In this document: positions 3,666-45,515 of the stretch, piece by piece
Layout: each line of letters opens with the position of its first letter
Numbering within the stretch: the stretch's first letter is position 1
Source: Anaerolineales bacterium
Lineage (GTDB): Bacteria > Chloroflexota > Anaerolineae > Anaerolineales > Villigracilaceae
Direction of reading: 5' to 3'
Length of the DNA stretch: 64,000 nt
NCBI GenBank assembly: GCA_046328915.1
Contig: JAXLVR010000007.1
Span: 157,206-221,205 of the forward strand
Position numbers and translations under genes: made by a program
Notes under the pieces: model-generated
What the model saw: only the letters and a program-made list of their open reading frames with translations
Database searches by the model: none
What the model was told of the DNA's origin: nothing

Positions 3666-5783
3666 ATGAGTCTCAAAAAATTTCTAGTTTTGCTCGGGGT
3701 TTTGGTTGTGCTTGGCGCGGTTTTAGCGGCCTGTGGCGGCACCCAACCCACTCAAACAGGTACTGAAACAGCCACGGAAGAAGCTCCCGCTGCTCCAATA
3801 CCAGACACCCCATATTTAGCTGATTGGCAAGGCTCCGCTCATGCAAATGTAGCCGACGAACCTTTCCGTCACTGGGATGACGCTGCCGAAAATCCTGATG
3901 GCGTCCCCACCACTTGTGCCAAGTGCCATACTACAGATGGTTACCGCGATTACCTCGGTGCCGATGGCTCTGAAGCCGGTAAAGTGGATGTAGCCGTTGC
4001 TGCCGACCATGCCCAAGGCGTGCAGTGCGTGGCTTGTCACAATGCTGTCACTATGACCAAGACCACGGTCGTATTCCCCTCCGGTGTTGAGATCAAAGCC
4101 GGTGATGACACCCGTTGTATGGAATGTCATCAGGGACGTGAGTCCAAGGTTAGCGTGGATGCGCAGATTGAAAAGTTTGCTGCCACCGATCCCGATGCCG
4201 TTGTTGCTCCGATCAAGGATGACCAGGGCAAGGATGTGTTCTTTGGTTTCCGCAATGTTCACTACTATGCTGCAGCCGCCACCCTCTACGGTGGTATGGT
4301 TCACGGCGGTTATGAATATGATGGCTTGACCTATGATGCCAAGAACACTCACACGGATGGCTATGACTCCTGCACAGGCTGTCATGATCCTCATACCCTC
4401 GAAGTCAAAGTTGACCAGTGCGCTTTCTGTCACGAAGATGTAGCCACCGTGGAAGATCTCAAGAACATCCGCATGGTTTCGTCCGCTCCTGACTACGATG
4501 GCGATGGCAATGTTGAAGAAGGTATGTACTACGAGATCCAGGGACTGCAGGAAGTCCTCATGGCTCAGATCCAGAAGTACGCTTTGGAAACTGCCGGCGC
4601 AGAGATCAAGTACGATCCTGAAACCTACCCATACTTCATGGGCGCAGATGGCAAGAACTACGCCAACTGGACTCCTCGTTTGCTGAAGGCTGCTTACAAC
4701 TATCAGGTCTCCATCAAGGATCCTGGTGCGTTTGCCCACGGCAATAAGTACATCGTCCAATTGCTCTTCGATTCGATCGCCGACCTCGGTGGCGATACCA
4801 GCAAACTTGCTCGTACCGATGCGGGTCACTTCGCTGGTAACACCGAACCCTTCCGACACTGGGACAAGGATGCCGATGGCAACCCTGTCTACGAAGTGGA
4901 AGCCGCTTGTGCCAAGTGCCATAGCGCTGCCGGTCTGCCGCAATTCCTCCAGTACGGTGCCAACCTGCCCGTGGAATCTGCAAATGGCTTTATGTGCTCT
5001 ACTTGTCACGACGAAGCTAACTGGCCCAACCGCTACACGGTCGCTTCTGTGACCTTCCCCAGCGGCTCAACCGTCAGCTTTGGTGGTAAAGATGCCGATG
5101 GCAACTTCGTTGCTGACGACTCCAACCTTTGTATCGAATGTCATCAGGGTCGCTCTTCTACACCGACCTTGAACAAGGCGCTCACTGGTAAGGAAGAAGA
5201 CACTCCTGATCCAAAGATCCGCTTCAACAACATTCACTACTTCGCTGCGGGCGCTACCATTTTCGGTGCTGACGTCCAGGGCGCATACATGTACGAAGGT
5301 ATGGAATATGTAGGTCAGAACATGCACGCTGACGAAGCTGGCAAGATGAATAAATGCCAGGATTGTCACGATGTCCATGCTCTCGAACCCAAGGTTGAAG
5401 CTTGCGAAACCTGTCACGATACTACCGACCCAACAGCAGTCCGCGAAAGCGATGTGGACTATGATGGCGACGGCGATGTGACCGAAGGTATCAAGGGCGA
5501 GATCGACACCATGACCGAAGCCCTCTATGCTGCGATCCAATCGTATGCTGAAAGCCACGGCGGAGCGATCTCCTACGACCCGAATGTGTACCCGTACTTC
5601 TCCGGTGCGGATGGCAAGGCATATGCAGCGTGGACTCCTCGCTTGCTCAAGGCTGCCTTCAACTACCAGTACGTCCAGAAAGACCCGGGTGCGTACGTTC
5701 ACAATCCCAAGTTCGTCATGCAGTTCCTGTATGACTCCACAAAAGACTTGGGTGGTGATGTGAGCAAGTTCACACGCCCGTAA
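3666..5783 (+). CDS. Decaheme c-type cytochrome lipoprotein (two tandem pentaheme modules)
   Basis: Signal peptide with lipobox LAAC. Ten CxxCH motifs arranged 5+5, with clear internal duplication of the two halves. RBS aaggagaa lies upstream. Confidence 0.85.
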   Translation: MSLKKFLVLLGVLVVLGAVLAACGGTQPTQTGTETATEEAPAAPIPDTPYLADWQGSAHANVADEPFRHWDDAAENPDGVPTTCAKCHTTDGYRDYLGADGSEAGKVDVAVAADHAQGVQCVACHNAVTMTKTTVVFPSGVEIKAGDDTRCMECHQGRESKVSVDAQIEKFAATDPDAVVAPIKDDQGKDVFFGFRNVHYYAAAATLYGGMVHGGYEYDGLTYDAKNTHTDGYDSCTGCHDPHTLEVKVDQCAFCHEDVATVEDLKNIRMVSSAPDYDGDGNVEEGMYYEIQGLQEVLMAQIQKYALETAGAEIKYDPETYPYFMGADGKNYANWTPRLLKAAYNYQVSIKDPGAFAHGNKYIVQLLFDSIADLGGDTSKLARTDAGHFAGNTEPFRHWDKDADGNPVYEVEAACAKCHSAAGLPQFLQYGANLPVESANGFMCSTCHDEANWPNRYTVASVTFPSGSTVSFGGKDADGNFVADDSNLCIECHQGRSSTPTLNKALTGKEEDTPDPKIRFNNIHYFAAGATIFGADVQGAYMYEGMEYVGQNMHADEAGKMNKCQDCHDVHALEPKVEACETCHDTTDPTAVRESDVDYDGDGDVTEGIKGEIDTMTEALYAAIQSYAESHGGAISYDPNVYPYFSGADGKAYAAWTPRLLKAAFNYQYVQKDPGAYVHNPKFVMQFLYDSTKDLGGDVSKFTRP

Positions 5784-5795
5784 GTTTTACGAAAT

Positions 5796-5834
5796 AAAAA
5801 ATGGCGGATGGCAACATCCGCCATTTTCTTTTTA
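5796..5834 (+). terminator. Rho-independent terminator after the decaheme gene
   Basis: Hairpin aatggcggatg/atccgccatt followed by a T-run. Confidence 0.5.
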
Positions 5835-5973: not shown

Positions 5974-7143
5974 GTGATGCACCAAAGGATCAAACTTCGC
6001 ACGCCTCACATCTGGACCGTGAGCCTGCTTCTCGGACTTGGGCTTTTCGCCTTCGCTCTGGCAGCACTCACCACAACCGCACAAGCTGCCCCCTCCCTAC
6101 AGCCCACAGCACAGGACCAAAAACCCAATAACGATTTTTGTCTTGCCTGTCACCAAGAGGAAGGCATCGACAAAACCCTTGGCAGCGAATCGCTCCCAGT
6201 AACCATTAATCCCACTGAATTTGGTTTATCGGTTCACGCTGAAGAAGGCGTTCTCTGTGTAGATTGTCACGTAGATATCAGTGACTATCCCCACCCAGAC
6301 GTAAAATCAAAATCTGTTCGCGATTTTCAAATGACCTTCGCCGACTCCTGCAAGGAATGTCACGAAGAACAGTTCACCGATGCGCATGATAGTGTTCATC
6401 AAACCGCAATGGATGAAGGCGACCCGAACGCACCGCTTTGTTCTGATTGCCATAACCCCCACACTCAGGGACGTATCATTGGCGAAACCAGCGGCGAGCT
6501 GACCATTGCCGCCCGCAAAGAAGTGCCTGCTACTTGTGCCAAATGCCATACCGAAACGGTTGAGATTTACAAGAACAGTGTTCACGGCGGCGCCCTTGCA
6601 GATGGCAACACCGATGTGCCTACTTGTACAGATTGTCACGGTGTGCATAACATCGGTGACCCCACCACGAACGCTTTCCACAACAACACCCCTGCTTTGT
6701 GCGCAGATTGTCACGATAACGAAGAGTTGATGGGCAAATACGGTCTTTCTACCGAAGTGCTCGAAACCTACGTGGCTGATTTCCACGGCACCACCACAAC
6801 ACTCTTTGAACAGCAATTCCCCGGTCAACCTATTAACACGGCTGTTTGTACAGACTGCCACGGCGTTCATGATATTGCCAGCACCAAAAACCCAGAGACC
6901 GGTATTGCCATGCAAGAAAACCTGCTGGTTAAATGTCAGCGCTGCCATCCCGATGCCACAGCCAACTTCTCAGCCGCATGGATGGGACACTACCAACCCA
7001 GCCCTGAACATTACCCGATCGTCTATTACGTCAACCTTTTCTATAAATTCTTCATTCCCGCGGTCCTGGGCGGCATGGTGCTCTTTATCCTCACCGACAT
7101 CTATCGCCGCATTATCAACCGCGCGAAAGGAGCAAAGCACTAA
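5974..7143 (+). CDS. Nonaheme c-type cytochrome, C-terminally membrane anchored
   Basis: N-terminal signal peptide, nine CxxCH motifs, and a C-terminal TM helix. Upstream promoter-like element ttgtaa...tataat. Confidence 0.85.
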   Translation: MMHQRIKLRTPHIWTVSLLLGLGLFAFALAALTTTAQAAPSLQPTAQDQKPNNDFCLACHQEEGIDKTLGSESLPVTINPTEFGLSVHAEEGVLCVDCHVDISDYPHPDVKSKSVRDFQMTFADSCKECHEEQFTDAHDSVHQTAMDEGDPNAPLCSDCHNPHTQGRIIGETSGELTIAARKEVPATCAKCHTETVEIYKNSVHGGALADGNTDVPTCTDCHGVHNIGDPTTNAFHNNTPALCADCHDNEELMGKYGLSTEVLETYVADFHGTTTTLFEQQFPGQPINTAVCTDCHGVHDIASTKNPETGIAMQENLLVKCQRCHPDATANFSAAWMGHYQPSPEHYPIVYYVNLFYKFFIPAVLGGMVLFILTDIYRRIINRAKGAKH

Positions 7144-7997
7144 TGAATACCGTAACCAAAGCTTACATGCGCTTCCCGATCGCGCGCCGTATTGAACATT
7201 GGGTGATGATGCTCTCATTCACCTTGCTAGGTCTTACTGGGCTTCCTCAGCGCTTTCCAGAGGCTGGGCTCTCCCAAGCCATTCTAGGCGTTCTGGGAGG
7301 CATTCAGGGCGTGCGTACCGTACATCATACTGCTGCCGTCGTCATGATGTTTGGCACTGCCTGGCATATCCTTGTGATGGGCTACAGCGTCTTCGTCTTG
7401 CGCGATAAGATGTCCATGCTGCCTACTTTGCAAGATGCCAAAGACGGTCTGCAAGCCTTGCTGTATAACATCGGTTTTGCCAAGACCTATCCGCAAATGG
7501 GACGCTACACCTTCGAAGAGAAAATGGAATATTGGGCATTCGTTTGGGGTGCCCTAGTGATGGGTGCTACCGGTTTTATGATGTGGAACCCCATTACCGC
7601 GACAAGATTCCTGCCGGGTGAGTTTGTGCCAGCTGCCAAAGCGGCTCATGGTAATGAAGCTGTGCTTGCCGTGCTTGCCATCATTATCTGGCATATGTAT
7701 GGTGTACATATCAAACGTTTCAACAAAGCCATGTTCAACGGCAAGATGACCGAAACAGACATGCTGCATGAACATCCGCTGGAATTGGCAGACATCAAAG
7801 CCGGGATCGCAGACCGCCGCCCCGATGCCGCGACTCTGCGCAAGCGTCAGATGATCTATTACCCCATCGCCGCTGTCTTAACGATAGGCATGCTCGGTGG
7901 AATATATGGCTTTATCAACGCCGAAGAAACCGCACTGACAACCATTCCGCCCATCGTGGAAACGGTCGAACCGCCAGCGGCAACTGTTCAACCATAG
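7143..7997 (+). CDS. b-type cytochrome membrane subunit (Ni/Fe-hydrogenase/FdnI-like cytochrome b family)
   Basis: 284 aa with 4-5 TM helices carrying conserved His residues. The start overlaps the stop of the nonaheme gene (taATGa), suggesting translational coupling. Confidence 0.7.
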   Translation: MNTVTKAYMRFPIARRIEHWVMMLSFTLLGLTGLPQRFPEAGLSQAILGVLGGIQGVRTVHHTAAVVMMFGTAWHILVMGYSVFVLRDKMSMLPTLQDAKDGLQALLYNIGFAKTYPQMGRYTFEEKMEYWAFVWGALVMGATGFMMWNPITATRFLPGEFVPAAKAAHGNEAVLAVLAIIIWHMYGVHIKRFNKAMFNGKMTETDMLHEHPLELADIKAGIADRRPDAATLRKRQMIYYPIAAVLTIGMLGGIYGFINAEETALTTIPPIVETVEPPAATVQP

Positions 7998-8004
7998 TAA
8001 CAAG

Positions 8005-8040
8005 AATAAAAAGAGCCGCCCTAGAGGCGGCTCTTTTTTG
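8005..8040. terminator. Bidirectional terminator between convergent cytochrome operons
   Basis: Hairpin aaaagagccgcc/ggcggctctttt flanked by A- and T-runs. Confidence 0.6.
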
Positions 8041-8055
8041 ATTCTGTACCGAATA

Positions 8056-9319
8056 TTAATCTCCTGCAACTGCTTCCCCAACTTTCATGGTTACAACTTC
8101 ATACTCTTCGCTCACGAGGCGATGATCCACAACCCGCAAGTATTTCACGCCCACCGAGAAAGCCAACAGACCGAAGGCAATGATGCCAAGCCCAGCTGCC
8201 CATTCCACTAGTGATGGGGTGTAACTGGTGTATTGTACGACCATTTCACCGGGGGTATACGGAATGACCGCAAGGAAACCGACGATGTTTGTATCGAAGC
8301 GGAAGGCAATCACGCCGCCGACGATCATTGCGAAGGCGAGCATCCGCCACAGCGGAGTCTGACGCAAGGAGCGCTTGAGCAGGATAATGGTAGGAAGAAG
8401 CGCGCCGAAGAGCATTTCGCCGAACCAGAAGTTGAAGGAGAGCGGTCCCTTGGTGAGGAGTCTGAATCCTTCGGTGCGTCCGGGTTCGTAGGTGTAGGTT
8501 TGGGCAAGCCAATCCCAGAAGCGCCAGTAGAGGTAGGCGATCATCATATAGCCGAGCACTTGCGCTACACGTTCGATCAAGGTGTCGTTGACTTTGGCTT
8601 TGGGGGTTAGCCGCGCCGCCAGCATGGATGCGAACAAGGTGAGCGAGATGCCGCCGAGAATGGCTGTGAACATGAACATCACAGACATTTCAGGGCGATA
8701 CCAAATTGGGCGCGCTTTGATAACACCATAGACCGCCCCCAGCGAAGATTGATGCAAACTGGAGAGAGCCAAGCCTAAGACGGCGAGCACAGGAGCGTAG
8801 TGATGCAAGTGTTCCATCTTTTCGGCGATCTTCGGATATTTCGTGCGCAGCCATTCAAAGGATGCAACGATGGGTGCCACTTCGAGAAGGAGTACGGTGA
8901 AGTATAGACCCACGCACATGGTCACTTCCCAAAGCAGAGAGTGGGTTCCAGAAGACAAAAGACTTCCAGAAGCGTTCAGGACGACCAATATCCAGCAAGA
9001 GCGCCATCATTGCCATGCTATAGCCCGTGAAGCCGATGAAGGTGGCGGTGCGGGCGATAGGCTCATAGCGTTTGAAGCCGAAGAGATACACGATCGCGCA
9101 TAAACTGAATGCGCCGGCTGCTACGGCAATGGAGGAGAGATCAATAGTGATCCACAAGCCCCAAGGAACGAGGTTTGTGAGATTGGTGATGACCAAGCCT
9201 TTCCAGAAGACGGTTAGCGCGGCAATTAAGGCGCTGACTAAAAGAAGCCCTAGAAAAGCGAGCCATGCACCCCAAGGGGTAAAGATATTTTCGCGAATGG
9301 TTTTTAGGATGGTTTTCAT
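8056..9319 (-). CDS. NrfD/PsrC-like polytopic quinol-interacting membrane subunit, interrupted by a frameshift near 8940-8990
   Basis: Two overlapping ORFs (8855..9319 and 8056..8988) together make up one NrfD-family protein. The frames switch inside a conserved loop: FWNP in one frame, HSLLWEV in the other. Confidence 0.75.
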
Positions 9320-9320
9320 G

Positions 9321-10097
9321 TCATCCCTCCACAGTAGTGTCTTCGTTTACGGGGAGGTAATAAACCCGCGGTTTGGTTCCAAGGTTTTCGCGCAAGCGAT
9401 AGGACGGGTGGTCTTGCAAAAGCTGGCTCACATTGGAATTCGGGTCGTTCAAGTCACCAAAGATGCGGGCGCCGGTTGGGCAAGCAACTACACAAGCAGG
9501 GGTGGCGGCGGGGTCTTCACCGGGTTTGAGTCCCAGCGAAAGTCCGCGATCGATGCGTTGATAGCAGAAAGCACACTTCTCTGGCACACCGCGCGGACGG
9601 CGTTCCACTTCTGGTTCGCCATATTGCGGCACGTATGGGTTCTCACCATCAAACTTTTCCCAGTTGAAGGAGCGGGCATCGTAGGGGCAGGCTACCATGC
9701 AATAACGGCAACCGATGCATTTTTCATAGTCCATCATTACGATGCCATCATCACGATAGTAGCTGGCGCCCACCGGGCAGACTTCCACACAGGGTGCGTG
9801 TTCGCATTGCATACATGGACGCGGCAGATACACTTGCTTGCCATTCATTTCGCCCATATCCAGAACCTTGGTCCATTCCATATCTGGGTTGATGTCGTTG
9901 GTGGCATGGCATGCCATATTGCATTGATTGCAGCCCGTGCACTTGGATTGGTCAATGACCATTACCCATTGATGTTCACCTTTTGCGCCTTCAGAGGCTT
10001 TCACTTCTTGCGTGAGGAGGCGTGTTCCGGCAGCGGCAGCAATGCCTACCGCAGAAAGTTTGATGAAATCACGGCGGTTGAACTTATTTTGAGCCAT
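9321..10097 (-). CDS. 4Fe-4S ferredoxin-type iron-sulfur subunit, NrfC/PsrB-like, Tat-exported
   Basis: Twin-arginine signal NRRDFIKL and four Cys clusters (CTGCNQC...C, CxxCxxC...CP). Confidence 0.85.
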   Translation of the reverse strand: MAQNKFNRRDFIKLSAVGIAAAAGTRLLTQEVKASEGAKGEHQWVMVIDQSKCTGCNQCNMACHATNDINPDMEWTKVLDMGEMNGKQVYLPRPCMQCEHAPCVEVCPVGASYYRDDGIVMMDYEKCIGCRYCMVACPYDARSFNWEKFDGENPYVPQYGEPEVERRPRGVPEKCAFCYQRIDRGLSLGLKPGEDPAATPACVVACPTGARIFGDLNDPNSNVSQLLQDHPSYRLRENLGTKPRVYYLPVNEDTTVEG

Positions 10098-11076
10098 GGT
10101 GTACCTCAGCAGATTTCTTCAATACGAGGCGGTATCCGCGTTCGAGCCAGGGAGCCAGCAACATACCAGCTGCGATACCGATCAGCGCTGTGATACCTGC
10201 ATACCCAAGTGGGGAAACCGGAGCAGGGTTCGGTGAAACGATGGGAGATTGATCTACGATTGCAGCGGCAGGTTTCGGGGTTTCTGTGGGGGCAACGTTC
10301 GCAACAATAGCTTGTTCCGTCGCATCTGCCTGACCATCTGTATGCATTTGATTGGCATGGCATGAGTTACACGTGGTAATGCTTGCCTTGAAAGAGTGAT
10401 CCGCTACCTGGTGAACCGCTGCGTTACTTTCCACATGCTCAAGGTGACAATCGATACAAGTGACGCCTTGTTTGCTATGCGTGGAATATGGGAAGTTCAT
10501 GCTGGCTTCTTCATGACAACTAATACATAGTTGAGAAGCATCTGCAACCTTTTGTTCCTTAAGGTTGACGGTGATTTTCAAGGAAGCATTGTGCGGGTCA
10601 TGACAGGTTGTGCAGTCCATGCCAGCGGCGAAGTGGGTGCTTTCTTCCCATTCTTTCATACCAAAACGAGCATCGGTATGGCAGGTGCCGCAGGTGCCGC
10701 CGGTCGCATCCACGCTCATGGTGGTTTTGGGGTGGTCACCACCATCATCTACATGACAGGCTGTGCAGTACACGCCGTCTTTTTCCCAGGTACCGGTGTT
10801 TTCGTCGTATCCTGTCACATGGCAGGCGAGACAAGCGCTCGGTTTGCCTTGGTCGGTCCAATCTTTAACGAAGATTGGGTCGCTGGTAGCGTTCCCATGC
10901 GGACCGTTCTTCCAACTCATTTCAAATTCTTCATGGCAGTCTGCGCAGGTTTTTTCTTCGTCTCCCGTGGGCGTAGGGGGATTGGCATCCTGTGCGGAGG
11001 CGGTAAGAATGGAAACACCTGCAATTAGCAGGGAGACCATAAGGGCGAGGATGATTTTTTCAAAACGTGAGAACAT
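10084..11076 (-). CDS. Octaheme c-type cytochrome with C-terminal TM anchor
   Basis: N-terminal signal peptide, eight CxxCH motifs, and a C-terminal hydrophobic helix. Overlaps the NrfC-like gene by 14 nt. Confidence 0.85.
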   Translation of the reverse strand: MFSRFEKIILALMVSLLIAGVSILTASAQDANPPTPTGDEEKTCADCHEEFEMSWKNGPHGNATSDPIFVKDWTDQGKPSACLACHVTGYDENTGTWEKDGVYCTACHVDDGGDHPKTTMSVDATGGTCGTCHTDARFGMKEWEESTHFAAGMDCTTCHDPHNASLKITVNLKEQKVADASQLCISCHEEASMNFPYSTHSKQGVTCIDCHLEHVESNAAVHQVADHSFKASITTCNSCHANQMHTDGQADATEQAIVANVAPTETPKPAAAIVDQSPIVSPNPAPVSPLGYAGITALIGIAAGMLLAPWLERGYRLVLKKSAEVHHGSK

Positions 11077-11111: not shown

Positions 11112-11456
11112 TTAAGCGTGAGCTTTCGATGGTTTTAGCACCGGTGTAGGTGCATTGATAAAGATTTCGCAACCAAGGCAGGCTTCACGCATATAGCCGT
11201 TTGAAAGGCGATGGATCTGCCAACAGGGTTTTCCGCTTTCGGCGGCACGAGCTTTAATATCGTCCATCGAAAGACCTTGTTCCTTCCAACAGGGTGTTTC
11301 ATCGCGCACCAGAAGGTTACGTTCGATCTCCGCTTCCTTCTGCCAGCGCACATCCAGGCGGCGTAAACCCATCACGATCAATGTGGTTACCAAAATAGGC
11401 AAACCCAATCGCACCGTAACACCCAGGATAAAAACGAGAATTGAATTAGTAGTCAT
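11112..11456 (-). CDS. Membrane-anchored Cys-rich hypothetical protein (4 Cys: CW...CW...CLGC)
   Basis: The likely start is MTTNS at 11456, with an N-terminal TM helix and a C-terminal Cys-rich domain. It lies directly upstream of the octaheme gene on the same strand. Confidence 0.45.
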   Translation of the reverse strand: MTTNSILVFILGVTVRLGLPILVTTLIVMGLRRLDVRWQKEAEIERNLLVRDETPCWKEQGLSMDDIKARAAESGKPCWQIHRLSNGYMREACLGCEIFINAPTPVLKPSKAHA

Positions 11457-11463
11457 GTCGACC

Positions 11464-11583
11464 TCACTTGAGCCAGTAGTTGGATTCTTTGCGGCGTAAC
11501 AACTCACCGAGTAGTAGAAGCGCTCCAAATGGGATGGCAACGCGGGCGATAAAGTACAGGATGAAAAACTCAGAACCGTTCAT
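11464..11583 (-). CDS. Small single-TM peptide (39 aa), possibly translationally coupled to the downstream Cys-rich protein
   Basis: Strong SD (gaaaggaga) 6 nt before the ATG, a hydrophobic core, and a stop 5 nt before the next ATG. It is missing from the ORF track because it is under 60 aa. Confidence 0.35.
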   Translation of the reverse strand: MNGSEFFILYFIARVAIPFGALLLLGELLRRKESNYWLK

Positions 11584-11866: not shown

Positions 11867-12517
11867 CTATGCTTTTATGATCCCCTTACGAATGGCATAT
11901 CTCACTAATTCTGAGCGTGAGTGGAGATTTAACTTACGCATAATATTCTCACGGTGACGCTCCACCGTTTTGGGGCTAATCACAAGCGCATCGGCAATCT
12001 CTTGATTGCTGGCACCTTCTGCCAGCATTGTAAAGACCTCATGCTCGCGGTCGGTCAAACCGCCAAGATCGATCTTCTCTTCTGGCAAGCGGTCAATGTT
12101 TAGATAATCGCGCACCAACAGTTTCGCCATGGATGGGTAGAGATATACCTCCCCATTGGCAGCGGCGCGAATGGCAGTGATCAATTCTTCAGGTGCGGCG
12201 CGTTTGGGCACATAGCCTGAAGCACCTGCATTCAACATTTGGAAGAAATATTCTTCGTCTTCATGAATGGTCAACGCCACAATGTTCACATTCGCAAATT
12301 TTGCCTTGATCTCGCGTGTGGCTTCAATACCGGTCTTATCGGGCAGACCGATATCCATCAGAATCACGGTTGGTTGTACGCGTTCTGTCTCTGCCAAGGC
12401 TTCTGCTGCAGACCCCGCCTCACCTACAATTTCAAGGTCTTCTTGCCCGTTGAGCAGCATCTTCAACCCTGTTCGGACGACCGCATGGTCATCCACCAAT
12501 AACAATCGAATCGTCAT
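11867..12517 (-). CDS. Response regulator, NarL/FixJ family (REC + LuxR-type HTH)
   Basis: N-terminal LLVDDHAVVRTGL receiver domain and a C-terminal LuxR HTH. Confidence 0.9.
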   Translation of the reverse strand: MTIRLLLVDDHAVVRTGLKMLLNGQEDLEIVGEAGSAAEALAETERVQPTVILMDIGLPDKTGIEATREIKAKFANVNIVALTIHEDEEYFFQMLNAGASGYVPKRAAPEELITAIRAAANGEVYLYPSMAKLLVRDYLNIDRLPEEKIDLGGLTDREHEVFTMLAEGASNQEIADALVISPKTVERHRENIMRKLNLHSRSELVRYAIRKGIIKA

Positions 12518-13995
12518 TTCTCCTCCTGATCTTTCAAATGCAATGGCACTACAGCCTCAACTTCCGTCCCATACCCTGGGCGTGAGGAGATGGTCACACC
12601 GCCGCCGAGCAATGCTGCACGTTCTTCCATGCCTGCCAAACCCAAAGAGACGCGCCCAATGCGGTTTTGTACATCTTTCATCTCAAACCCCACCCCATTA
12701 TCAAACACATGAATGCGAACTTCCTTTTGTAAATAATGGATCTTGACGTTAACCGTGGTGGCTTGGGCATGTTTGATAACGTTATTCAATGCTTCTTGCG
12801 TAATGCGGAAGATGGTGATCTTCACGGCATCGTCGAGCGTGGGTTCGTCGCCGTCGATATCCACGCGCACATGCAGGGAGGTCAACTCATGGATGCGCGA
12901 AGCGTACCACCTCAACGTGGCGGAAAGGCCCAGGTCGTCGAGGTGCGCAGGCCTGAGGTCCGAGATGATGCGTTGCAATTCATGGATGGACTCTGAGGTA
13001 AGAGATTGCAATTGAGTCAGAGTGGTGAGACGTTTTTTAGAGTCAGTCTCGTTTGCAAGCCCGCGTAAACCCATGCCAATGGCAGTTAATGACTGGCCAG
13101 TTTCATCATGAAGATCGCGTGCAATGCGCTGACGTTCAGACTCTTGTGCACCAACAATGCGGCGAAAAAGTTGGGCGCGTAGTTTTTCGCGCTGCTGTGA
13201 TTCGTGCAACTGTGACGCTTGTAGTTCTGCAATCTTGCTGTCGCTTTCTACTTGAAAGGCACGTAAAAAGCGTGTGACAAATAAAGAAGCGAACATGGCA
13301 GTGATTGCGCGTAGTAATTGAATGGAAAAACCAAAGGTGTTTAGGAAAAGCTCAGCGTTAAGAAATGTGGATGGAGGTAAGGGACTTGGCTCTGTAAAAA
13401 GTTGACCGACAAGGCTATACCAAATGAATGCGACCGATGCCCACAAACTGTCGCGCCCAAAACTTACCAAACCTGCTCTACGAAAAGCCCGTTGTTGGAC
13501 TACCAAGCCTGCGGCTGCAAGCAAACCTGCTGGAATGGCAATGGAGTACCGCGTCCACACATCGGCAACGGCATAAATATTATCCAGAGGATATTTGCTT
13601 TTGAAAATCAGTAGTCCATAAACCCAGATGGCTTCGAGCCCTAGCGGGATGATGAGACTCACTCTCCAGGTCGATTCACTGCCAAGCACGAGATACGAAC
13701 CGAATGCCGCTAAAGATAAAAATGAAAAAGCCAAAATGGATAACGCCAGCAGTGGATAAATACCTTCGAGAAAGGCATTTAAGTGCCCCATAGCTCTGAA
13801 CATTTCCAACCATTCATGGGCAGCATGTACAAGACCAAAGCCTGCCAGCGGACGTAGTGCCATGCGCAAGCGTGCATCTGTAGAGCGTCCTCCTTCCATG
13901 GCAACCAATAAGCCCATGCTAAAGAAGGCAAGCCCATAAAAGAAATAGATGACTACAACAGATAGATTTTCCATGCTTACATAAAAAGACCCCAA
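12514..13995 (-). CDS. Sensor histidine kinase, HisKA_3 family, with a polytopic membrane sensor domain
   Basis: About six N-terminal TM helices, a coiled coil, the H-box RIARDLHDETGQSL, and an HATPase_c domain. Overlaps the response regulator by 4 nt. Confidence 0.85.
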   Translation of the reverse strand: MGSFYVSMENLSVVVIYFFYGLAFFSMGLLVAMEGGRSTDARLRMALRPLAGFGLVHAAHEWLEMFRAMGHLNAFLEGIYPLLALSILAFSFLSLAAFGSYLVLGSESTWRVSLIIPLGLEAIWVYGLLIFKSKYPLDNIYAVADVWTRYSIAIPAGLLAAAGLVVQQRAFRRAGLVSFGRDSLWASVAFIWYSLVGQLFTEPSPLPPSTFLNAELFLNTFGFSIQLLRAITAMFASLFVTRFLRAFQVESDSKIAELQASQLHESQQREKLRAQLFRRIVGAQESERQRIARDLHDETGQSLTAIGMGLRGLANETDSKKRLTTLTQLQSLTSESIHELQRIISDLRPAHLDDLGLSATLRWYASRIHELTSLHVRVDIDGDEPTLDDAVKITIFRITQEALNNVIKHAQATTVNVKIHYLQKEVRIHVFDNGVGFEMKDVQNRIGRVSLGLAGMEERAALLGGGVTISSRPGYGTEVEAVVPLHLKDQEEK

Positions 13996-18088: not shown

Positions 18089-18162
18089 TGCTCCCGGCAG
18101 GACTCGAACCTGCGACCTATTGCTCCGCAAGCAAGCGCTCTAATCCACTGAGCTACGGAAGC
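18089..18162 (-). tRNA. tRNA, probably Arg; the anticodon reads GCG in my fold (unusual; has a C27-U43 mismatch)
   Basis: Cloverleaf folded by hand: 7-bp acceptor stem, D-arm gctc/gagc with G18G19 and A20, T-arm gcagg-ttcgagt-cctgc, anticodon loop ttGCGga. The isotype needs tRNAscan-SE. Confidence 0.6.
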
Positions 18163-18259
18163 GTTCATTTGTTAAGCGGGCAGTATTTTACTGCATTGTA
18201 TTCTGAAGGTCAAGGTGCTTGACGGCATGCCCCCCTGCATGTAAAATCAGCGTCGCCTT

Positions 18260-18332
18260 GCGGGAGTCGCCAAGTGGTAAGGCATCAGCCTTCCAAGCTG
18301 ACATTTCGTGGGTTCGAATCCCATCTCCCGCT
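18260..18332 (+). tRNA. tRNA-Gly (anticodon TCC)
   Basis: Acceptor gcgggag/ctcccgc, 3-bp D-stem, anticodon stem tcagc/gctga with loop ctTCCaa, and T-loop ttcgaat. Confidence 0.85.
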
Positions 18333-18409
18333 CTGACGTTCGGTGTCAAGTGTCAGGTTCCAAGTGTCACGTGACACTCCCGCACTTGGCACCTGATACT
18401 TTAAGCCAC

Positions 18410-18482
18410 GGGCTCGTGGCGCAGCGGTTAGCGCAGGGAACTCATAATTCCTTGGTCGTAGGTTCGAATCCTACCGGGCCCA
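18410..18482 (+). tRNA. tRNA with CAT anticodon (elongator Met or Ile2-lysidine type)
   Basis: Acceptor gggctcg/cgggccc, D-arm gcgc-agcggtta-gcgc, anticodon loop ctCATaa, T-arm gtagg-ttcgaat-cctac. No GGG:CCC initiator signature at anticodon-stem positions 29-31. Confidence 0.8.
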
Positions 18483-41516: not shown

Positions 41517-44500
41517 ATGCTTAAGAACTTCGTAAAACTATTCAGTGGTGACCCCACAAAAAAGACTGTAGACCAATATCGCCCGCTCGTGGAGCAGGTC
41601 AATGCCTTGGAGGCGCAATTTTCGTCTCTGAGTGACGATGCTTTGCGCGCCAAGACGGACGAATTTAAGAAACGGATTGCCGACCTTACTGGGAATGTAG
41701 AAGGTTTGGAAGACAAAGAACGGATCAAAGCCGAACAAAACGCCCTGGAACAACTCATGCCCGAAGCTTTTGCCGCCGTGCGGGAAGCTTCAAAACGCAC
41801 CATTGGGCTTCGCCATTACGACGTGCAGATCATCGGCGGTGCGGCGTTACACAGCGGCTCCATCGCAGAAATGCGCACGGGTGAAGGGAAAACCCTTGTC
41901 GCCACCATGCCCGTCTATCTCAATTCCCTGCTTGGACGTGGCGTTCACCTCATTACAGTTAACGATTATCTGGCACGCCGCGATGCCCGTTGGATGGCGC
42001 CGATTTATCATGCCCTCGGCTTGAGTGTAGGCGTGTTGCAAATGGCAGCTGCCACCGAGAACGGCAAGAAAGCGTTTATCGTTGATTTTGAACGGGACGC
42101 CCCACAAGAAGATCAACGCCACCTACACCTCGTGGAGCGGGTCGAAGCCTATCGCGCCGACGTGACCTTTGGCACCAACTCCGAGTTTGGTTTCGATTAC
42201 CTGCGCGATAACATGGCAATGCGCTTGGATAACCGCGTCCAACGCGGGCATTACTTCGCTATGGTCGATGAAGTCGATAACGTCCTCATCGACGAAGCGC
42301 GTACTCCGCTTATCATTTCGGGTCCCGCCTCTGGTGATCTGGACTGGTATGGGCGTATGGCACAGATTGTGAAACAGCTCAAACCCGAAGATTTCGAAAT
42401 GGAAGAGAAATCTCGCAGCATTAACCTGACTGAGATCGGTGTAAGCCGTGTTGAAGCACTGTTGGGTGTGCAATTGCTCGACCCTGATCGCCCTGAAGAC
42501 CTCAACCCTGAGCAAGCTCGCCTCATGGGGTATTTGCAACAATCTCTGCGTGCACAATTTCTATTCACTCGCAACAAAGATTATTTGGTGCAGGGCGGCA
42601 AAGTCATCATCATCGACGAGTCGACGGGGCGTCTCATGCCTGGGCGGCGTTGGAGCGATGGTCTGCATCAAGCTGTGGAAGCCAAAGAAGGCGTAAAGGT
42701 CGAGCCGGAATCGGTCACCTATGCCACGGTCACATTGCAGAACTACTATCGCATGTACGAAAAGCTGGCAGGTATGACCGGTACCGCGCTGACCGAAGCC
42801 GAAGAGTTCAACAAAATTTACAAACTCGAAGTGGCGCCGATCTCGCCGAACCTTGAATATCTTTCGTACGGCAAAGAAGCCATACTCACTGAGATCAAAA
42901 CAAAAGATGAAGAAGGATATGCGTATTCCTACTTTGCCAAAGTAGGCGATACCAAGCCGCTTTTCTTCCGCCGTAAAGATTACCCTGATGTCATTTACCG
43001 TACAGTTGAAGCCAAGTTGCGTGCCATTGTGCAAGAGATCGTTCGCTACAATGCACTCGGACGTCCGTTACTTGTAGGTACCACCTCGGTCGAATCTTCA
43101 GAACGTCTCTCAAACCGCCTCAAAGCGGAACCGGTACGTCGTTTGATGCAATACTTCCTAGTGCGCGACCATTACATTCGCGCCAATAATATTGAAGAAG
43201 ACGGGCGCCTCATAGCGGACCTCGTGCCTTTTAACGAGCCCATTGAGAAAATCACTCCCGACGCCTTACGCGCCTTCATCAAACCCCACGGGCTGACCAA
43301 TATCAGCCTCGACGATGAAACCAACCTGCAAACCTTGCTCGATATTTTGCGTTTGCCCAGCGAAGCCAAAGACCGCTTGAAGAAGATCTTCCAAGGCGGC
43401 GTCTTGCATCAAGTCTTGAATGCACGTCGCCATACCGAAGAATCGCAGATCATTGCAGGTGCGGGTGCTTTTGGCGCAGTGACCATTGCCACCAACATGG
43501 CAGGTCGTGGTGTGGACATTAAACTCGGCGGCGAGTTGGCAGAAGAAGTCATCTCAGCGGTTAATCGTGTGTTGGGTAAAACCGGGTTGAAAGACCCATT
43601 TGATATGACTCACGACGAACGTAGAGCGGAGTTGAAGAAACTGGATTCATCAGCCTATGGTTTGTATGAAGCTGAGGTCAAGAACTTCCTACAATACTTT
43701 GATGATATGGAACGTGTGAAAGAATTGGGCGGCTTGCACGTTATTGGCTCCGAACGCCACGAAGCACGCCGTATTGACAACCAATTGCGCGGTCGTGCGG
43801 CTCGCCAAGGTGACCCTGGTTCTTCGCGTTTCTACCTTTCATTGGAAGATGACCTGATGCGTATTCAGGGCGGCGCGCAAGTCAGCGGATTGATGGAACG
43901 CCTCAAAGTGGACGATTCGCTGCCATTGGAAGCCCGTATTGTGGCAAGCGTGATCGAACAATCTCAACACCGTATTGAAGGCGCGAACTTTGACGTCCGC
44001 AAACATCTCTTAGAATACGATGATGTTTTGAACACGCAACGTCAGCAGATCTACTTGCAGCGCGACAAGATCTTCGTCAAAGAAGATTTAAGCGGTGATG
44101 TGGCAGAAATGCTTGATAACGAAGTGACCAAGCGTGTGGAAGTTGGCTTGGCGGATGAAGAAGGTCCGTGGCGTTTGTTGGCTTGGCTTGACCAGGTTCA
44201 ACCCGCTTTTGAATCAAAGAATGGGTTATTCCCTTCTTACGGGTTCAAGCTTTTGCTCGATCAAATTGATCCTTCTGATGTCCGCAATTCGACTTTGGAC
44301 CTCATTACGAAGTCTATTGAAGCCGAATACGCTCATGCCATGCGCGCCATTGAGACGATGATCGAAAAGACGGGCGAGACTCTCGAAACGCAAATCGCAG
44401 AACGAGAAGACAGCCTCGATGCTTTCTTCCAAACGTTGGGCGACCGTGATGATGCGCCTAAAGCGCAAAAGTTGGTGGAAGAGATCAACAGCCTGGCTCG

Positions 44501-45515
44501 CTTGGCAATTCGCCCGAGCAATGACTTGCTCAAGAAACTGTCAGATGACCCTGAAGATGCCAAGGAAGATATTCAGGAGATGGTCGCTAGTCAGTTGACC
44601 ATCATCAGTGCGACGCGTGTGATCGGTGCGATTCAGAACCGCATTGGTGAACAGATCCAATGGCAGAGCCCGCTCCCTTCAGATTGGGAGGATCTTTCTG
44701 AGATCTTACTGAACACTTCACGAGAAGCCTTTGATAAGAAGCGTGAACGCTTGAATGCTCAGGTGGCTCGCGACATTGATGTGTTGTTACAACGGGAAGA
44801 TGTCTCTACAGAAGCAGGCAGATTGCGTTTGTTAATCACCCTCTCGCAAGGTACACGCACCGCGTTCGACCAGAAGACTCATAAGCAGGTTAAACAGGTC
44901 TTTACCCGCTTTGCGTATGCATTCCGGGCGGCACAGTTGTTGGAAGGGCGTGAAGCGGAAGCCATTGCCGATGATGTGATGAACCACCTTGAAACGGCAG
45001 AAGAGTCCCTGCGCGAGACGTGGGGGCAGAGTGAGTTCGTGCGCTTGAGCCAGAACGCGACCAAACTCGCAGACTTTGGTCCGGCGGCGCGAATCGCTTT
45101 CGGCGAGGAAAAGCTGAGTAACGCTCCCGCCAGCCTGAGCGCGGATGAGGCGGCGCAGCTATCCTCTGCACTTGGAAAGTATGTGTTGAATGAAGTCCAT
45201 CGCCAGTTGTTATTAGGCGCGTTCAGCGAATTGTGGGTGGAATACCTGACCAAGGTTGAAGCCTTAAGAGTTTCGATAGGTCTTGAGGCTTACGCCCAAC
45301 GTGACCCGCTGGTACAATACAAACGCAGTGCATCGGAAATGTTCCAGCAATTGCTCGAAGATGTGCGTGGACTTGTGATCAGCCGGGCGTTTGCGGCACG
45401 ACCACGACGTGTGGAGATCACACCAATTGAGACCACAGAGACAGCTTCGACGCCGAATGAAACGTCGGTGCAAATTGGCGGTGATAGTAAAAAGAAGAAG
45501 CGCCGCCGCTCGTAA
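41517..45515 (+). CDS. secA: Preprotein translocase ATPase SecA (unusually long, 1332 aa, with large insertions)
   Basis: DEAD motor motifs (MRTGEGKTLVATMP, DEVD). Insertions lie in NBD1/NBD2, and there is a long C-terminal tail. Confidence 0.95.
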   Translation: MLKNFVKLFSGDPTKKTVDQYRPLVEQVNALEAQFSSLSDDALRAKTDEFKKRIADLTGNVEGLEDKERIKAEQNALEQLMPEAFAAVREASKRTIGLRHYDVQIIGGAALHSGSIAEMRTGEGKTLVATMPVYLNSLLGRGVHLITVNDYLARRDARWMAPIYHALGLSVGVLQMAAATENGKKAFIVDFERDAPQEDQRHLHLVERVEAYRADVTFGTNSEFGFDYLRDNMAMRLDNRVQRGHYFAMVDEVDNVLIDEARTPLIISGPASGDLDWYGRMAQIVKQLKPEDFEMEEKSRSINLTEIGVSRVEALLGVQLLDPDRPEDLNPEQARLMGYLQQSLRAQFLFTRNKDYLVQGGKVIIIDESTGRLMPGRRWSDGLHQAVEAKEGVKVEPESVTYATVTLQNYYRMYEKLAGMTGTALTEAEEFNKIYKLEVAPISPNLEYLSYGKEAILTEIKTKDEEGYAYSYFAKVGDTKPLFFRRKDYPDVIYRTVEAKLRAIVQEIVRYNALGRPLLVGTTSVESSERLSNRLKAEPVRRLMQYFLVRDHYIRANNIEEDGRLIADLVPFNEPIEKITPDALRAFIKPHGLTNISLDDETNLQTLLDILRLPSEAKDRLKKIFQGGVLHQVLNARRHTEESQIIAGAGAFGAVTIATNMAGRGVDIKLGGELAEEVISAVNRVLGKTGLKDPFDMTHDERRAELKKLDSSAYGLYEAEVKNFLQYFDDMERVKELGGLHVIGSERHEARRIDNQLRGRAARQGDPGSSRFYLSLEDDLMRIQGGAQVSGLMERLKVDDSLPLEARIVASVIEQSQHRIEGANFDVRKHLLEYDDVLNTQRQQIYLQRDKIFVKEDLSGDVAEMLDNEVTKRVEVGLADEEGPWRLLAWLDQVQPAFESKNGLFPSYGFKLLLDQIDPSDVRNSTLDLITKSIEAEYAHAMRAIETMIEKTGETLETQIAEREDSLDAFFQTLGDRDDAPKAQKLVEEINSLARLAIRPSNDLLKKLSDDPEDAKEDIQEMVASQLTIISATRVIGAIQNRIGEQIQWQSPLPSDWEDLSEILLNTSREAFDKKRERLNAQVARDIDVLLQREDVSTEAGRLRLLITLSQGTRTAFDQKTHKQVKQVFTRFAYAFRAAQLLEGREAEAIADDVMNHLETAEESLRETWGQSEFVRLSQNATKLADFGPAARIAFGEEKLSNAPASLSADEAAQLSSALGKYVLNEVHRQLLLGAFSELWVEYLTKVEALRVSIGLEAYAQRDPLVQYKRSASEMFQQLLEDVRGLVISRAFAARPRRVEITPIETTETASTPNETSVQIGGDSKKKKRRRS

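Follow-up and report, generated by a model that had tools for sequence, protein, structure and literature searches.

What kind of cytochrome is encoded by a gene that carries ten CxxCH motifs and a lipobox in an Anaerolineales genome, and where would its electrons go? In wastewater sludge, anammox granules, sediments and aquifers, Anaerolineales rank among the most abundant bacteria that remain uncultured, and their respiratory capacities have largely been inferred by counting CxxCH motifs. The gene lies in a stretch of 64,000 nucleotides, referred to here as the window. A sequence-only reading had described its product as a lipoprotein built by tandem duplication of a pentahaem module, which parallels the outer-surface decahaem cytochromes of the MtrC/OmcA type and appears distinct from them in sequence. 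The gene and its parts are given below with the evidence for each.

3666–5783 (stop codon included), + strand: decahaem lipoprotein gene, 705 aa (open reading frame, translation, ten CxxCH motifs and lipobox Cys, homologues 99–70% identical)
3666–3734, + strand: signal peptide with lipobox L-A-A-C, residues 1–23, the Cys23 codon being 3732–3734 (sequence, homologue conservation)
3735–3806, + strand: Thr/Pro/Glu/Ala-rich linker, residues 24–47 (pLDDT < 50 for residues 22–47, poor conservation in alignment A1)
3828–4814, + strand: N-terminal NrfA-like pentahaem module, residues 55–383 (module HMM envelope, self-alignment, conservation over 135 modules)
4815–5780, + strand: C-terminal NrfA-like pentahaem module, residues 384–705

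The open reading frame starts with ATG, and AGGAG is found 8–13 nt 5' of the start. The N-terminus shows the features of a Sec/SPII lipoprotein (MSLKKFLVLLGVLVVLGAVLAAC), in which an n-region with KK and a 16-residue hydrophobic stretch precede the lipobox L-A-A-C at C23, corresponding to the pattern [LVI][ASTVI][GAS]C near residue 20. A22 and C23 are invariant in alignment A1 of the close homologues. The ten CxxCH motifs and C23 account for the whole Cys content of the protein, and each of 120 close homologues contains exactly 21 Cys. The lipobox claimed from the sequence is indeed present, and the check for its loss in homologues came out in its favour, as all 120 keep the Cys. Across the wider family, a lipobox is kept by only 22 of the 54 two-module representatives; the remainder begin with a different hydrophobic N-terminus or with an N-terminal extension. 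The linker that follows is predicted to be disordered and is probably a flexible tether. The mature protein is acidic, with a pI of 4.6.

The tandem duplication was borne out by BLASTP self-alignment, where residues 40–375 and 376–705 share 41% identity over 331 columns (E = 1e-70), indicating two homologous halves with five CxxCH motifs each. As had been read from the sequence, each half opens with FRHWD, has CAKCH 16 residues further on, contains DYDGDG (residues 276–281 and 598–603), and ends with the block YDPxxYPYFxGADGKxYAxWTPRLLKAAxNYQ...KDPGA. The haem motifs are at C84, C121, C151, C236 and C252 in the N-terminal module and at C415, C444, C489, C564 and C580 in the C-terminal module, and the conserved His residues are 59, 199, 229, 243 and 358 in the former and 388, 524, 554, 571 and 679 in the latter. 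The five non-motif His of each five-haem module are conserved at 100% in four cases and at 88% in one over 135 modules. The haem-1 motif is CAKCH in both modules, and C..CH is kept at this site in 135 of 135 modules. The protein has approximately 70 aa per haem. The His and Arg of FRHWD were considered as ligand residues or as residues similar to Arg106 of NrfA and were ruled out, being without conservation across the family.

Although the duplication is present, it is not peculiar to the window protein. The module of approximately 330 aa is a reusable unit, with one, two or three copies in a protein, and it also turns up in fusions. N-type and C-type modules are separate old lineages. The family spans at least 5404 proteins and at least 491 species-level genomes, mostly of Anaerolineales, and its hosts were recorded from activated sludge, anammox reactors and groundwater. 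The closest kin of the window protein belong to Ca. Villigracilis, and identity among the 120 closest members ranges from 70 to 99%. In one relative (P0127), a PF01292 cytochrome b is fused to two modules; Ig-like Big_1/Big_2 stalks are located N-terminal to the modules in six relatives; and the module is fused to sensor domains in kinase and chemoreceptor proteins. A single-module homologue in Limimaricola stands alone next to nqr genes. The family has neither a name nor a model in Pfam or NCBIfam, its members are mostly annotated as "hypothetical protein", and no description of it was found in literature searches. Single-module relatives carry the NCBI name "polyheme membrane-associated cytochrome C", which has no NCBIfam model behind it; the only paper traced to the phrase is a transcriptomics study of Geobacter sulfurreducens anode biofilms (PMC2680965). 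ARMA_0580, a surface cytochrome of Ardenticatena maritima with 430 aa and 7 haems, was considered as a possible characterised relative and set apart by its architecture.

The pentahaem module belongs to the NrfA/ONR/HAO/OcwA/MccA structural superfamily and not to the MtrC/OmcA fold; it has the NrfA-type haem-domain fold with long C-terminal helices. The module profile matches NrfA chains among the PDB sequences with E-values of 8e-7 and 2e-6, and in a single HMM alignment its positions 22–210 align to residues 114–333 of E. coli NrfA, with all five haem motifs in register. PF02335 is matched at E ≤ 1 by only five of 20 single-module relatives, the best of which (P0264) passes the model with 39.7 bits against a gathering score of 24.1. 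The window protein itself matches neither PF02335 nor TIGR03152 at E ≤ 0.1, and a single-sequence phmmer search of the PDB sequences gave chance matches only (best E = 0.44). At full length, it gave only generic c3/c7/paired-CXXCH matches in Pfam and NCBIfam, none of them above the NCBIfam cut-offs. The Foldseek E-values are weak, with a best value of 0.06.

In the alignment to NrfA, Lys126 (the Lys of CxxCK), Tyr216 and His264 correspond to His, Arg (Arg158/Arg496) and Gly in the modules. Confidence in this alignment is low from haem 3 to haem 4, and R106 of NrfA lies outside the aligned region. By this alignment, the NrfA catalytic signature is lost in the modules; because of the low confidence between haems 3 and 4, a remodelled pocket may nevertheless exist. 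Arg158/Arg496 occupies the H+3 position after the haem-3 motif, which is the site of the NrfA catalytic Tyr, and is 88% conserved, and His199/His524 is 100% conserved. Compared with NrfA (E. coli 1GU6, G. lovleyi 6V0A) and ONR (8RV0), the window protein has CxxCH instead of CxxCK at haem 1, has the catalytic Tyr216 and His264 replaced, and carries the extra invariant His (199/524). It also differs from them in consisting of two covalently fused units, in its lipid anchor, and in falling below PF02335.

The surroundings of the gene bear on the source of its electrons. The neighbouring features are as follows.

5798–5827, + strand: putative terminator-like hairpin, 13-bp stem and then a T-run, 15 nt past the decahaem stop (consensus scan)
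5974–7143, + strand: nonahaem c-type cytochrome, 389 aa, with signal peptide and C-terminal TM helix (nine CxxCH, TM-like windows, generic multihaem Pfam/NCBIfam matches)
7143–7997, + strand: cytochrome b of the FdnI/HydC type, 284 aa (PF01292, E = 2e-14; FdnI-type NCBIfam matches below cut-off)
8008–8038, unstranded: putative palindromic terminator-like hairpin between the convergent cytochrome b and NrfD genes (consensus scan)
8056–9319, − strand: NrfD-family integral membrane subunit in two overlapping open reading frames, 8855–9319 and 8056–8988 (PF03916 on both pieces)
9321–10097, − strand: Tat-exported 4Fe-4S cluster protein, 258 aa (Fer4_11/Fer4_7 and TAT_signal matches)
10084–11076, − strand: octahaem c-type cytochrome, 330 aa, with C-terminal TM helix (eight CxxCH, TM-like windows, Pfam)
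11112–11540, − strand: conserved small membrane protein, 142 aa, with a Cys-rich C-terminal half and no family match
11867–13995, − strand: two-component system of a HisKA_3 histidine kinase (12514–13995) and a LuxR/NarL-type response regulator (11867–12517) (Pfam; Response_reg and GerE in the orthologue)

The nonahaem cytochrome is likely the membrane partner of the decahaem protein. Its gene lies directly 3' of the decahaem gene in 27 of the 67 related loci found from alignment A1, and its stop is overlapped by the start of the cytochrome b gene by 1 nt. The NrfD gene is split by an apparent 1-nt frameshift near position 8945, and its orthologues are intact, with 421 aa. In many loci, the gene for the 142-aa membrane protein is co-located with the octahaem gene, and the two-component genes adjoin the decahaem gene. 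A cytochrome b or FeS/NrfD module, which is quinol-dehydrogenase-like, is present within 8 kb in 54 of the 67 loci and directly 3' on the same strand in 42, and no recognised quinone module is found nearby in the other 13. The promoter scan gave nothing above the shuffle expectation, and Rfam gave three tRNAs and nothing else.

In composition, the partner genes, as distinct from the decahaem protein, resemble two inner-membrane quinol:cytochrome c oxidoreductases of Geobacter sulfurreducens (bioRxiv 10.1101/2025.04.14.648717), with haem numbers that differ from the 9 and 8 found here. CbcL likewise combines a multihaem c-type cytochrome with an FdnI/HydC-type cytochrome b, in its case as a fusion, and Cbc4 (CbcSTU) combines a membrane-anchored multihaem c-type cytochrome with a 4Fe-4S protein and an integral membrane subunit. 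Modules of the cytochrome b and NrfD kinds are usually taken to oxidise quinol (bioRxiv 10.1101/2025.04.14.648717).

We favour, with a little better than even confidence, the reading that the decahaem protein, which is built of NrfA/ONR/OcwA-type modules, serves a respiratory branch as an extracytoplasmic, membrane-tethered outlet for electrons or as its terminal reductase, and is functionally similar to OcwA. The Sec/SPII signal and Cys23 would anchor the protein through the disordered linker of approximately 25 residues. Anaerolineales hosts are described as lacking a Gram-negative envelope (PMC7399161, PMC5808234), so that the lipid would anchor the protein at the outward-facing side of the cytoplasmic membrane, without a porin partner; the label "outer-surface" given earlier is misleading in this respect. 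Menaquinol would be oxidised by the nonahaem cytochrome with the FdnI-type cytochrome b, in the manner of CbcL, and also by the octahaem cytochrome with the FeS protein and the NrfD subunit, in the manner of Cbc4 or NrfBCD. Electrons would then pass along the ten-haem chain, where each module may hold five haems in an NrfA-like arrangement without the NrfA catalytic signature, to acceptors beyond the membrane, such as Fe(III), humics, shuttles, partner cells or soluble oxidants.

The electron-transfer character of the protein is suggested by the five conserved non-motif His per five haems and by the replacement of NrfA Lys126, Tyr216 and His264. A link to the quinone pool is indicated by the frequency of the cytochrome b or FeS/NrfD module in the related loci and by the cytochrome b fusion in P0127, and the Big_1/Big_2 stalks of the relatives and the acidity of the mature protein point to surface display. 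The decahaem protein would thus be a distal electron-transfer or terminal-reductase component, as are OcwA (Thermincola potens, 6I5B) and OmhA (Carboxydothermus ferrireducens, 6QVM), which are NrfA-like surface multihaem terminal reductases of monoderm bacteria, in these cases Firmicutes (PMC6703420, PMC7829351). OcwA contains 9 haems and OmhA contains 11, in either case within a single unit extended by c554-like parts, whereas the window protein consists of two tandem pentahaem units and, unlike them, is anchored by a lipobox. OcwA has two proven five-coordinate haems, whereas haem 1 in each module of the window protein may be either six-coordinate or open. No sequence similarity to these proteins was detected, 6I5B being absent from the profile search of the PDB at E ≤ 10. 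The 13 loci without a quinone module, the frameshifted NrfD gene, the stand-alone Limimaricola homologue and the weak Foldseek E-values count against the electron-outlet reading.

A further-reaching version of the electron-outlet reading is put forward only tentatively, and we regard it as possible but doubtful. The fused modules may mimic the NrfA homodimer covalently, the nitrite-reductase scaffold may have lost its catalytic function, and the extra invariant His may close haem 1 to give a continuous ten-haem wire with all haems bis-His ligated. This family, not recognised before, might then be the main route of electron exchange between the abundant filamentous Anaerolineales of activated sludge, anammox reactors and aquifers and their surroundings, be these minerals, humics or partner cells, and the pentahaem unit might also have been recruited as an extracytoplasmic redox sensor for Ser/Thr kinases and chemoreceptors.

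To our knowledge, in nearly all characterised members of the superfamily, which includes NrfA, ONR, HAO and OcwA, one or more haems with open coordination occupy the site of NrfA haem 1, and for this reason His199/His524 and Arg158/Arg496 could form a substrate pocket, with the His not serving as a sixth ligand. The decahaem protein would then be an enzyme, in which haem 1 of each module is five-coordinate and His-ligated and faces a remodelled distal pocket (His199/524, Arg158/496, Tyr218/223 and equivalents). Such a two-site reductase or oxidase would act on a soluble N- or S-oxyanion or a similar small molecule and be fed by the adjacent quinol dehydrogenases, as in NrfHA and NrfABCD. We consider this unlikely, though it is the most serious competitor. 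OcwA, with haems bound by CxxCH, reduces both nitrite and hydroxylamine (PMC6703420), CxxCH occurs naturally at haem 1 in three NrfA clades (PMC8840924), the neighbouring genes resemble NrfBCD, the conserved Arg takes the position of the NrfA catalytic Tyr, and the kinase and chemoreceptor fusions fit ligand binding. However, the alignment shows neither the Lys ligand nor the catalytic Tyr and His of NrfA to be kept, there are as many conserved non-motif His as haems, and the Ig-like stalk and cytochrome b fusions also suit an electron conduit. No nitrite-, sulfite- or tetrathionate-related genes are present among the neighbours examined.

[quoted passage not shown] Activated sludge, anammox reactors and groundwater are common habitats of the hosts, and a capacitor role has been proposed for multihaem proteins of sludge (PMC11495043). 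However, the sequence holds no cue to direction, the usual reading of the adjacent cytochrome b and NrfD modules as quinol oxidases argues against uptake, and the haem density of the protein is low for a storage protein. Both roles are quite improbable.

That the protein is a cytochrome of the MtrC/OmcA type is contradicted by the present analysis and is almost certainly wrong. The parallel drawn by the sequence-only reading holds for the ten haems in a 5 + 5 arrangement and for the lipobox; it fails for the fold, which is NrfA-like. The sequence is distinct, as had been noted, and matches neither TIGR03507 at E ≤ 0.1 nor, in a single-sequence search, any PDB sequence. MtrC, OmcA, MtrF and UndA of Shewanella share with the window protein the ten haems arising from an ancient internal duplication, the lipoprotein signal and a presumed surface role, but ten CxxCH motifs with a lipoprotein signal peptide are common to many unrelated cytochromes. 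These proteins differ in fold, in their beta-barrel domains I and III and in their porin-cytochrome partners, and the window host is monoderm; the four-domain plan, in which two Greek-key beta-barrels alternate with two pentahaem domains, is absent from the window protein. Short matches to PF22113 (MtrC/MtrF domain II/IV), mostly sub-threshold, occur near paired CxxCH motifs in 18 of 20 modules; the model is absent from the full-protein matches and scores 18.5 bits on the C-terminal module against a gathering score of 30. The earlier remark that the protein appears distinct from MtrC/OmcA thus agrees with our finding no structural or family-level match. The neighbours of the decahaem gene encode cytochrome b, NrfD, FeS and TM-anchored multihaem proteins, with no MtrA/MtrB-type porin-cytochrome genes beside it, and porin-cytochrome complexes have not been found in Anaerolineales genomes (PMC7399161).

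The present analysis defines a concrete and highly conserved protein family and places it in the NrfA/OcwA superfamily and not with MtrC/OmcA. The occurrence of the module in one, two or three copies and in fusions with cytochrome b, Ig-like stalks, a kinase and a chemoreceptor is an illustration of how multihaem cytochromes would evolve under the "grafting and pruning" model (bioRxiv 10.1101/2022.02.24.481543). If the protein is an enzyme, it would add a new two-site representative to a superfamily that is central to the N and S cycles. If it is a surface electron outlet, its gene would serve as a marker of extracellular electron transfer among monoderm Chloroflexota, and the protein would represent the third independent reuse of the nitrite-reductase scaffold, after OcwA and OmhA.

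The decahaem lipoprotein is encoded on the + strand at 3666..5783, the sole long ORF at that place that makes sense, and its ATG is preceded at 8–13 nt by an AGGAG ribosome-binding site. The product is an acidic protein of 705 residues (pI 4.6), in which a script located ten CxxCH motifs and no variant haem motif; five lie in each half, as the sequence-only reading had counted (residues 84, 121, 151, 236 and 252, and residues 415, 444, 489, 564 and 580). Cys23 alone of the 21 Cys lies outside the haem motifs, and its surroundings, MSLKKFLVLLGVLVVLGAVLAAC, read as a textbook Sec/SPII lipoprotein signal. A linker of about 25 residues is disordered in the full-length AlphaFold2 model, with pLDDT below 50 at residues 22–47. 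When residues 40–375 were compared with residues 376–705 using BLASTP, a single alignment of 331 columns was obtained (41% identity, E = 1e-70), which is far beyond chance and bears out the close likeness of the halves proposed earlier. The landmarks on which that proposal was built are seen in this alignment, namely FRHWD followed 16 residues on by CAKCH, a DYDGDG loop, and the block YDPxxYPYF...WTPRLLKAAxNYQ...KDPGA in each half.

The word-indexed search of 5.8 billion proteins gave at least 5404 matches, the best 120 of which are 70–99% identical and 703–739 aa long, originate nearly all from Anaerolineales/Chloroflexota metagenome-assembled genomes (MAGs), and are named 'hypothetical protein' or generic cytochrome. 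The lipobox, which the earlier reading expected to be kept, is present together with exactly 21 Cys in all 120 of these closest homologues, and ten CxxCH motifs are present in 119. A survey covering a single genome for each species found relatives in 491 genomes; the nearest belong to an Anaerolineales MAG (90%) and to Candidatus Villigracilis vicinus (88%), which places the window in a Villigracilaceae-like member of the Anaerolineales. When 1.84 billion cluster representatives were searched exhaustively with HMMER, 1364 matched at E ≤ 1e-3; at the stricter E ≤ 1e-30, 339 did. No curated model in Pfam or NCBIfam names the family, and no paper describing it was found in the literature search.

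A module HMM was trained on both halves of 57 close homologues, and the 150 best representatives were scored with it. The commonest form has two modules and ten haems; single modules occur in proteins of 355–420 aa, three modules occur in representative P0121 (1284 aa, 15 haems), and in some representatives the modules are preceded by N-terminal extensions of 100–450 aa. In two-module proteins, the nearest neighbour of an N-type module is the N type of another protein in 45 of 50 cases, and that of a C-type module is another C type in 38 of 50. The duplication is therefore old and came before the diversification of the two-module proteins. Single-module proteins are 42.8% identical to the N type versus 36.6% to the C type. 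The core computed over 135 complete modules contains all five CxxCH motifs, four non-motif His conserved at 100% (His59/388, His199/524, His243/571 and His358/679, numbered for the N and C modules), His229/554 and Arg158/496, which immediately follows the haem-3 motif (88% each), several Tyr, the DxDxDG loop and, in the C-terminal helices, the YPY and NY motifs. The His and Arg of FRHWD showed no conservation beyond the close clade in this comparison.

Binding of Ca2+ by the DYDGDG loops is plausible, because they fit positions 1–8 of the EF-hand/DxDxDG pattern and three relatives give Pfam EF-hand matches, that of P0256 being at a second such loop, past the YPY motif. Most family members carry a canonical EF-hand-like loop (DxNxNGxxDxxE) inserted past the YPYFF motif. 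The window protein has only a shortened form of this loop, GADGK, past YPYF in each of its modules (about 4625..4670 and 5590..5630, residues ~321–335 and ~642–656), and the DYDGDG loops are retained.

Representatives with long N-terminal extensions were scanned with Pfam. In P0127, a PF01292 cytochrome b and two modules form one chain; this Rosetta-stone fusion supports the view that the decahaem protein exchanges electrons directly with a quinol-oxidising cytochrome b. Big_1/Big_2 Ig-like repeats precede the modules in P0131, P0139, P0155, P0158, P0162 and P0164, with a lipobox besides in P0139, as would be expected for a protein held off the membrane through the wall. P0122 has a Ser/Thr kinase domain before two modules, P0211 is a methyl-accepting chemotaxis protein that carries a single module, and P0143 and P0149 have additional haem domains (18 and 15 haems). 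Judged from these varied architectures, the pentahaem module would be a general extracytoplasmic redox unit. A module is also fused to an AAA/TPR/PnrA-like protein in P0200; this fusion and those of P0122 and P0211 suggest an extracytoplasmic redox/ligand sensor, and may also be gene-call artefacts. A single-module homologue of 362 aa is found in the cultured marine alphaproteobacterium Limimaricola soesokkakensis (loci L085/L086, 8001..9089), divergent from the nqr (Na+-NQR) operon and with no cytochrome partners nearby; it could be a tractable model for the module.

The single-sequence search gave no match among PDB chains, and no describing family in Pfam/NCBIfam scored above cut-off, where only generic c3/c7/paired-CXXCH models appeared. 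A profile of 20 single modules matched NrfA chains in the PDB (3UBR, E = 8e-7; 6V0A, E = 2e-6), and representative P0264 passes the Pfam NrfA model PF02335 (39.7 bits, gathering score 24.1). The 135-module profile aligned in one stretch with residues 114–333 of E. coli NrfA (sequence 100% identical to 1GU6), with five haem motifs in register: CAKCH of haem 1 lies opposite C122WSCK126, and the motifs of haems 2 to 5 lie opposite C160, C209, C282 and C314. His229/554 is aligned with His275, each seven residues ahead of the haem-4 Cys, and His243/571 with His301. The AlphaFold2 models are of usable quality (full length, pLDDT 80.7 and pTM 0.75; C module, pLDDT 81.0 and pTM 0.82). Both consist of helices and loops; every module has three long helices in its C-terminal part, and no beta-barrel is present. 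The structure comparison scored as follows.

Structure comparison scores
ONR 8RV0: 10.6
NrfA 6V0A: 10.4
NrfA 1QDB: 10.3
OcwA 6I5B: 9.6
NrfA 1OAH: 9.5
OmhA 6QVM: 8.5
HAO, two structures: 5.7 and 5.6
Unrelated helical proteins: at most 5.2

The full-length model gave the same families (OcwA 9.0, NrfA 8.5 and 8.4, ONR 8.3). Foldseek matches were weak (best E = 0.06), and all of the top 25 were NrfA, ONR or MccA. Each half very probably belongs to the NrfA/ONR/OcwA structural superfamily. MtrC, OmcA, MtrF and UndA were absent from every structure comparison list, and the family models likewise gave no MtrC/OmcA-type match above cut-off, so the earlier impression of a sequence distinct from these proteins holds; the lipoprotein is unrelated to MtrC/OmcA.

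The genes beside the decahaem gene are as follows.

Features downstream of the decahaem gene
5798–5827: terminator-like hairpin with a 13-bp stem, 3′ of the decahaem gene
5974..7143, +: nonahaem c-type cytochrome, TM helix at its C terminus
7143..7997, +: FdnI/HydC-type cytochrome b (PF01292, E = 2e-14), overlapping the nonahaem gene by 1 nt
8056..9319, −: NrfD-family membrane subunit, convergent with the cytochrome b gene
9321..10097, −: Tat-exported 4Fe-4S protein
10084..11076, −: octahaem cytochrome with a TM anchor
11112..11540, −: small conserved membrane protein, 142 aa, one TM helix
− strand, same convergent set: HisKA_3 kinase and NarL-type regulator

In composition, the nonahaem/cytochrome b and octahaem/FeS/NrfD sets match the Geobacter quinol:cytochrome c oxidoreductases CbcL and Cbc4 (bioRxiv 10.1101/2025.04.14.648717). 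This neighbourhood is a conserved one. Of 67 related loci for which 3 kb or more of downstream sequence was available, the nonahaem/cytochrome b pair lies immediately downstream in 27, a paralogous multihaem/FeS/NrfD set on the same strand does so in 15, and at least one such cytochrome b or NrfD module lies inside 8 kb in 54. The decahaem gene is genomically coupled to quinol-dehydrogenase-like modules. The locus is chromosomal, since dnaE, secA and aconitase genes share the window.

The NrfD-family gene is split near 8945 into overlapping ORFs of 154 and 310 aa by one base missing in the run 'aacccactc', which puts ...FWNP and HSLLWEVTM... out of frame; its orthologues are unbroken (421 aa), and the frameshift is either a C-run sequencing/assembly error or a real pseudogene. 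In related genomes, the NrfD cluster is separated from the cytochrome b gene by the gene for a 564-aa NapC/NirT-like cytochrome (PF03264; L001, 14508..16202; L003, 19885..21579), and the window has at 7997..8056 no such gene, only a 60-bp spacer with a palindromic terminator-like hairpin (8008–8038). The 142-aa protein, with a Cys-rich C-terminal half (PCW...PCW...CLGC) and no Pfam match, is encoded alongside the octahaem/FeS/NrfD genes in many of the related loci and may have a metal- or redox-binding role as an accessory subunit. Elsewhere in the window, SecA (41517..45515, +) is unusually long at 1332 aa, with wide gaps between its Pfam domains (DEAD domain at residues 10–432 for 290 profile positions, P-loop domain resuming at 625), which suggests insertions. 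Rfam gave no matches in the whole window beyond the three tRNAs at 18089..18482, one on the − strand and two on the + strand.

A nitrite reductase identity was rejected by alignment. All 135 modules have His in place of the proximal Lys of the catalytic haem, Tyr216 (H+3 past the haem-3 motif) is aligned with Arg158/496, His264 lies opposite Gly, and Arg106 falls outside the alignment. In NrfA, four haems are bis-His and one is open (PMC8840924). The candidate distal ligands read off its sequence are the non-motif His94, His275, His301 and a His in the C-terminal ASHGIHMHAPEE, three of which are aligned with module His229, His243 and His358. His59, which lies 25–27 residues before the haem-1 Cys, would be the counterpart of His94 (28 residues) by spacing alone. 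The fifth invariant His, His199/524, has no NrfA counterpart in the alignment, and it falls within the segment which in NrfA makes up the haem-1 distal pocket. We lean slightly towards His199/524 being the sixth ligand of haem 1, giving ten low-spin bis-His haems and a pure electron-transfer chain, because there are as many conserved His as haems. The superfamily prior favours another reading, where His199/524, Arg158/496 and the conserved Tyr residues would line an open site of remodelled form, like that of OcwA, whose five-coordinate CxxCH-bound haems slowly reduce nitrite and hydroxylamine (PMC6703420).

In the proposed mechanism, export and lipidation would leave the protein tethered on the outside of the cytoplasmic membrane in a monoderm host. 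Menaquinol electrons would enter via the TM-anchored nonahaem/cytochrome b module, the octahaem/FeS/NrfD module or both, and would pass through the ten haems to an acceptor beyond the membrane. This role agrees with what has been shown or suggested for OcwA and OmhA of monoderm Firmicutes (PMC6703420; PMC7829351). It is attractive to consider that the tandem NrfA-like fusion could reproduce a ten-haem dimer within one chain, since NrfA functions as a homodimer, with 11.7 Å between haem 5 of one subunit and haem 5 of the other (PMC8840924). A two-site enzyme acting on a soluble substrate is a possible, if unlikely, alternative, and electron uptake or charge storage appears improbable. A divergent MtrC/OmcA protein is contradicted by the fold, the family models and the genomic context, and is scarcely tenable.

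An NrfA-superfamily multihaem cytochrome working outside the membrane of a monoderm is already known, and a specialist would not be astonished by the decahaem family. What is new is the arrangement of two pentahaem units in tandem, the lost catalytic signature of NrfA, the lipid anchor and how widely the family occurs in Anaerolineales. Extracellular electron transfer by Anaerolineales has long been suspected, and the family offers an abundant, well-defined candidate for it that can be tested; it also adds a new branch to the evolutionary story of NrfA-like cytochromes.
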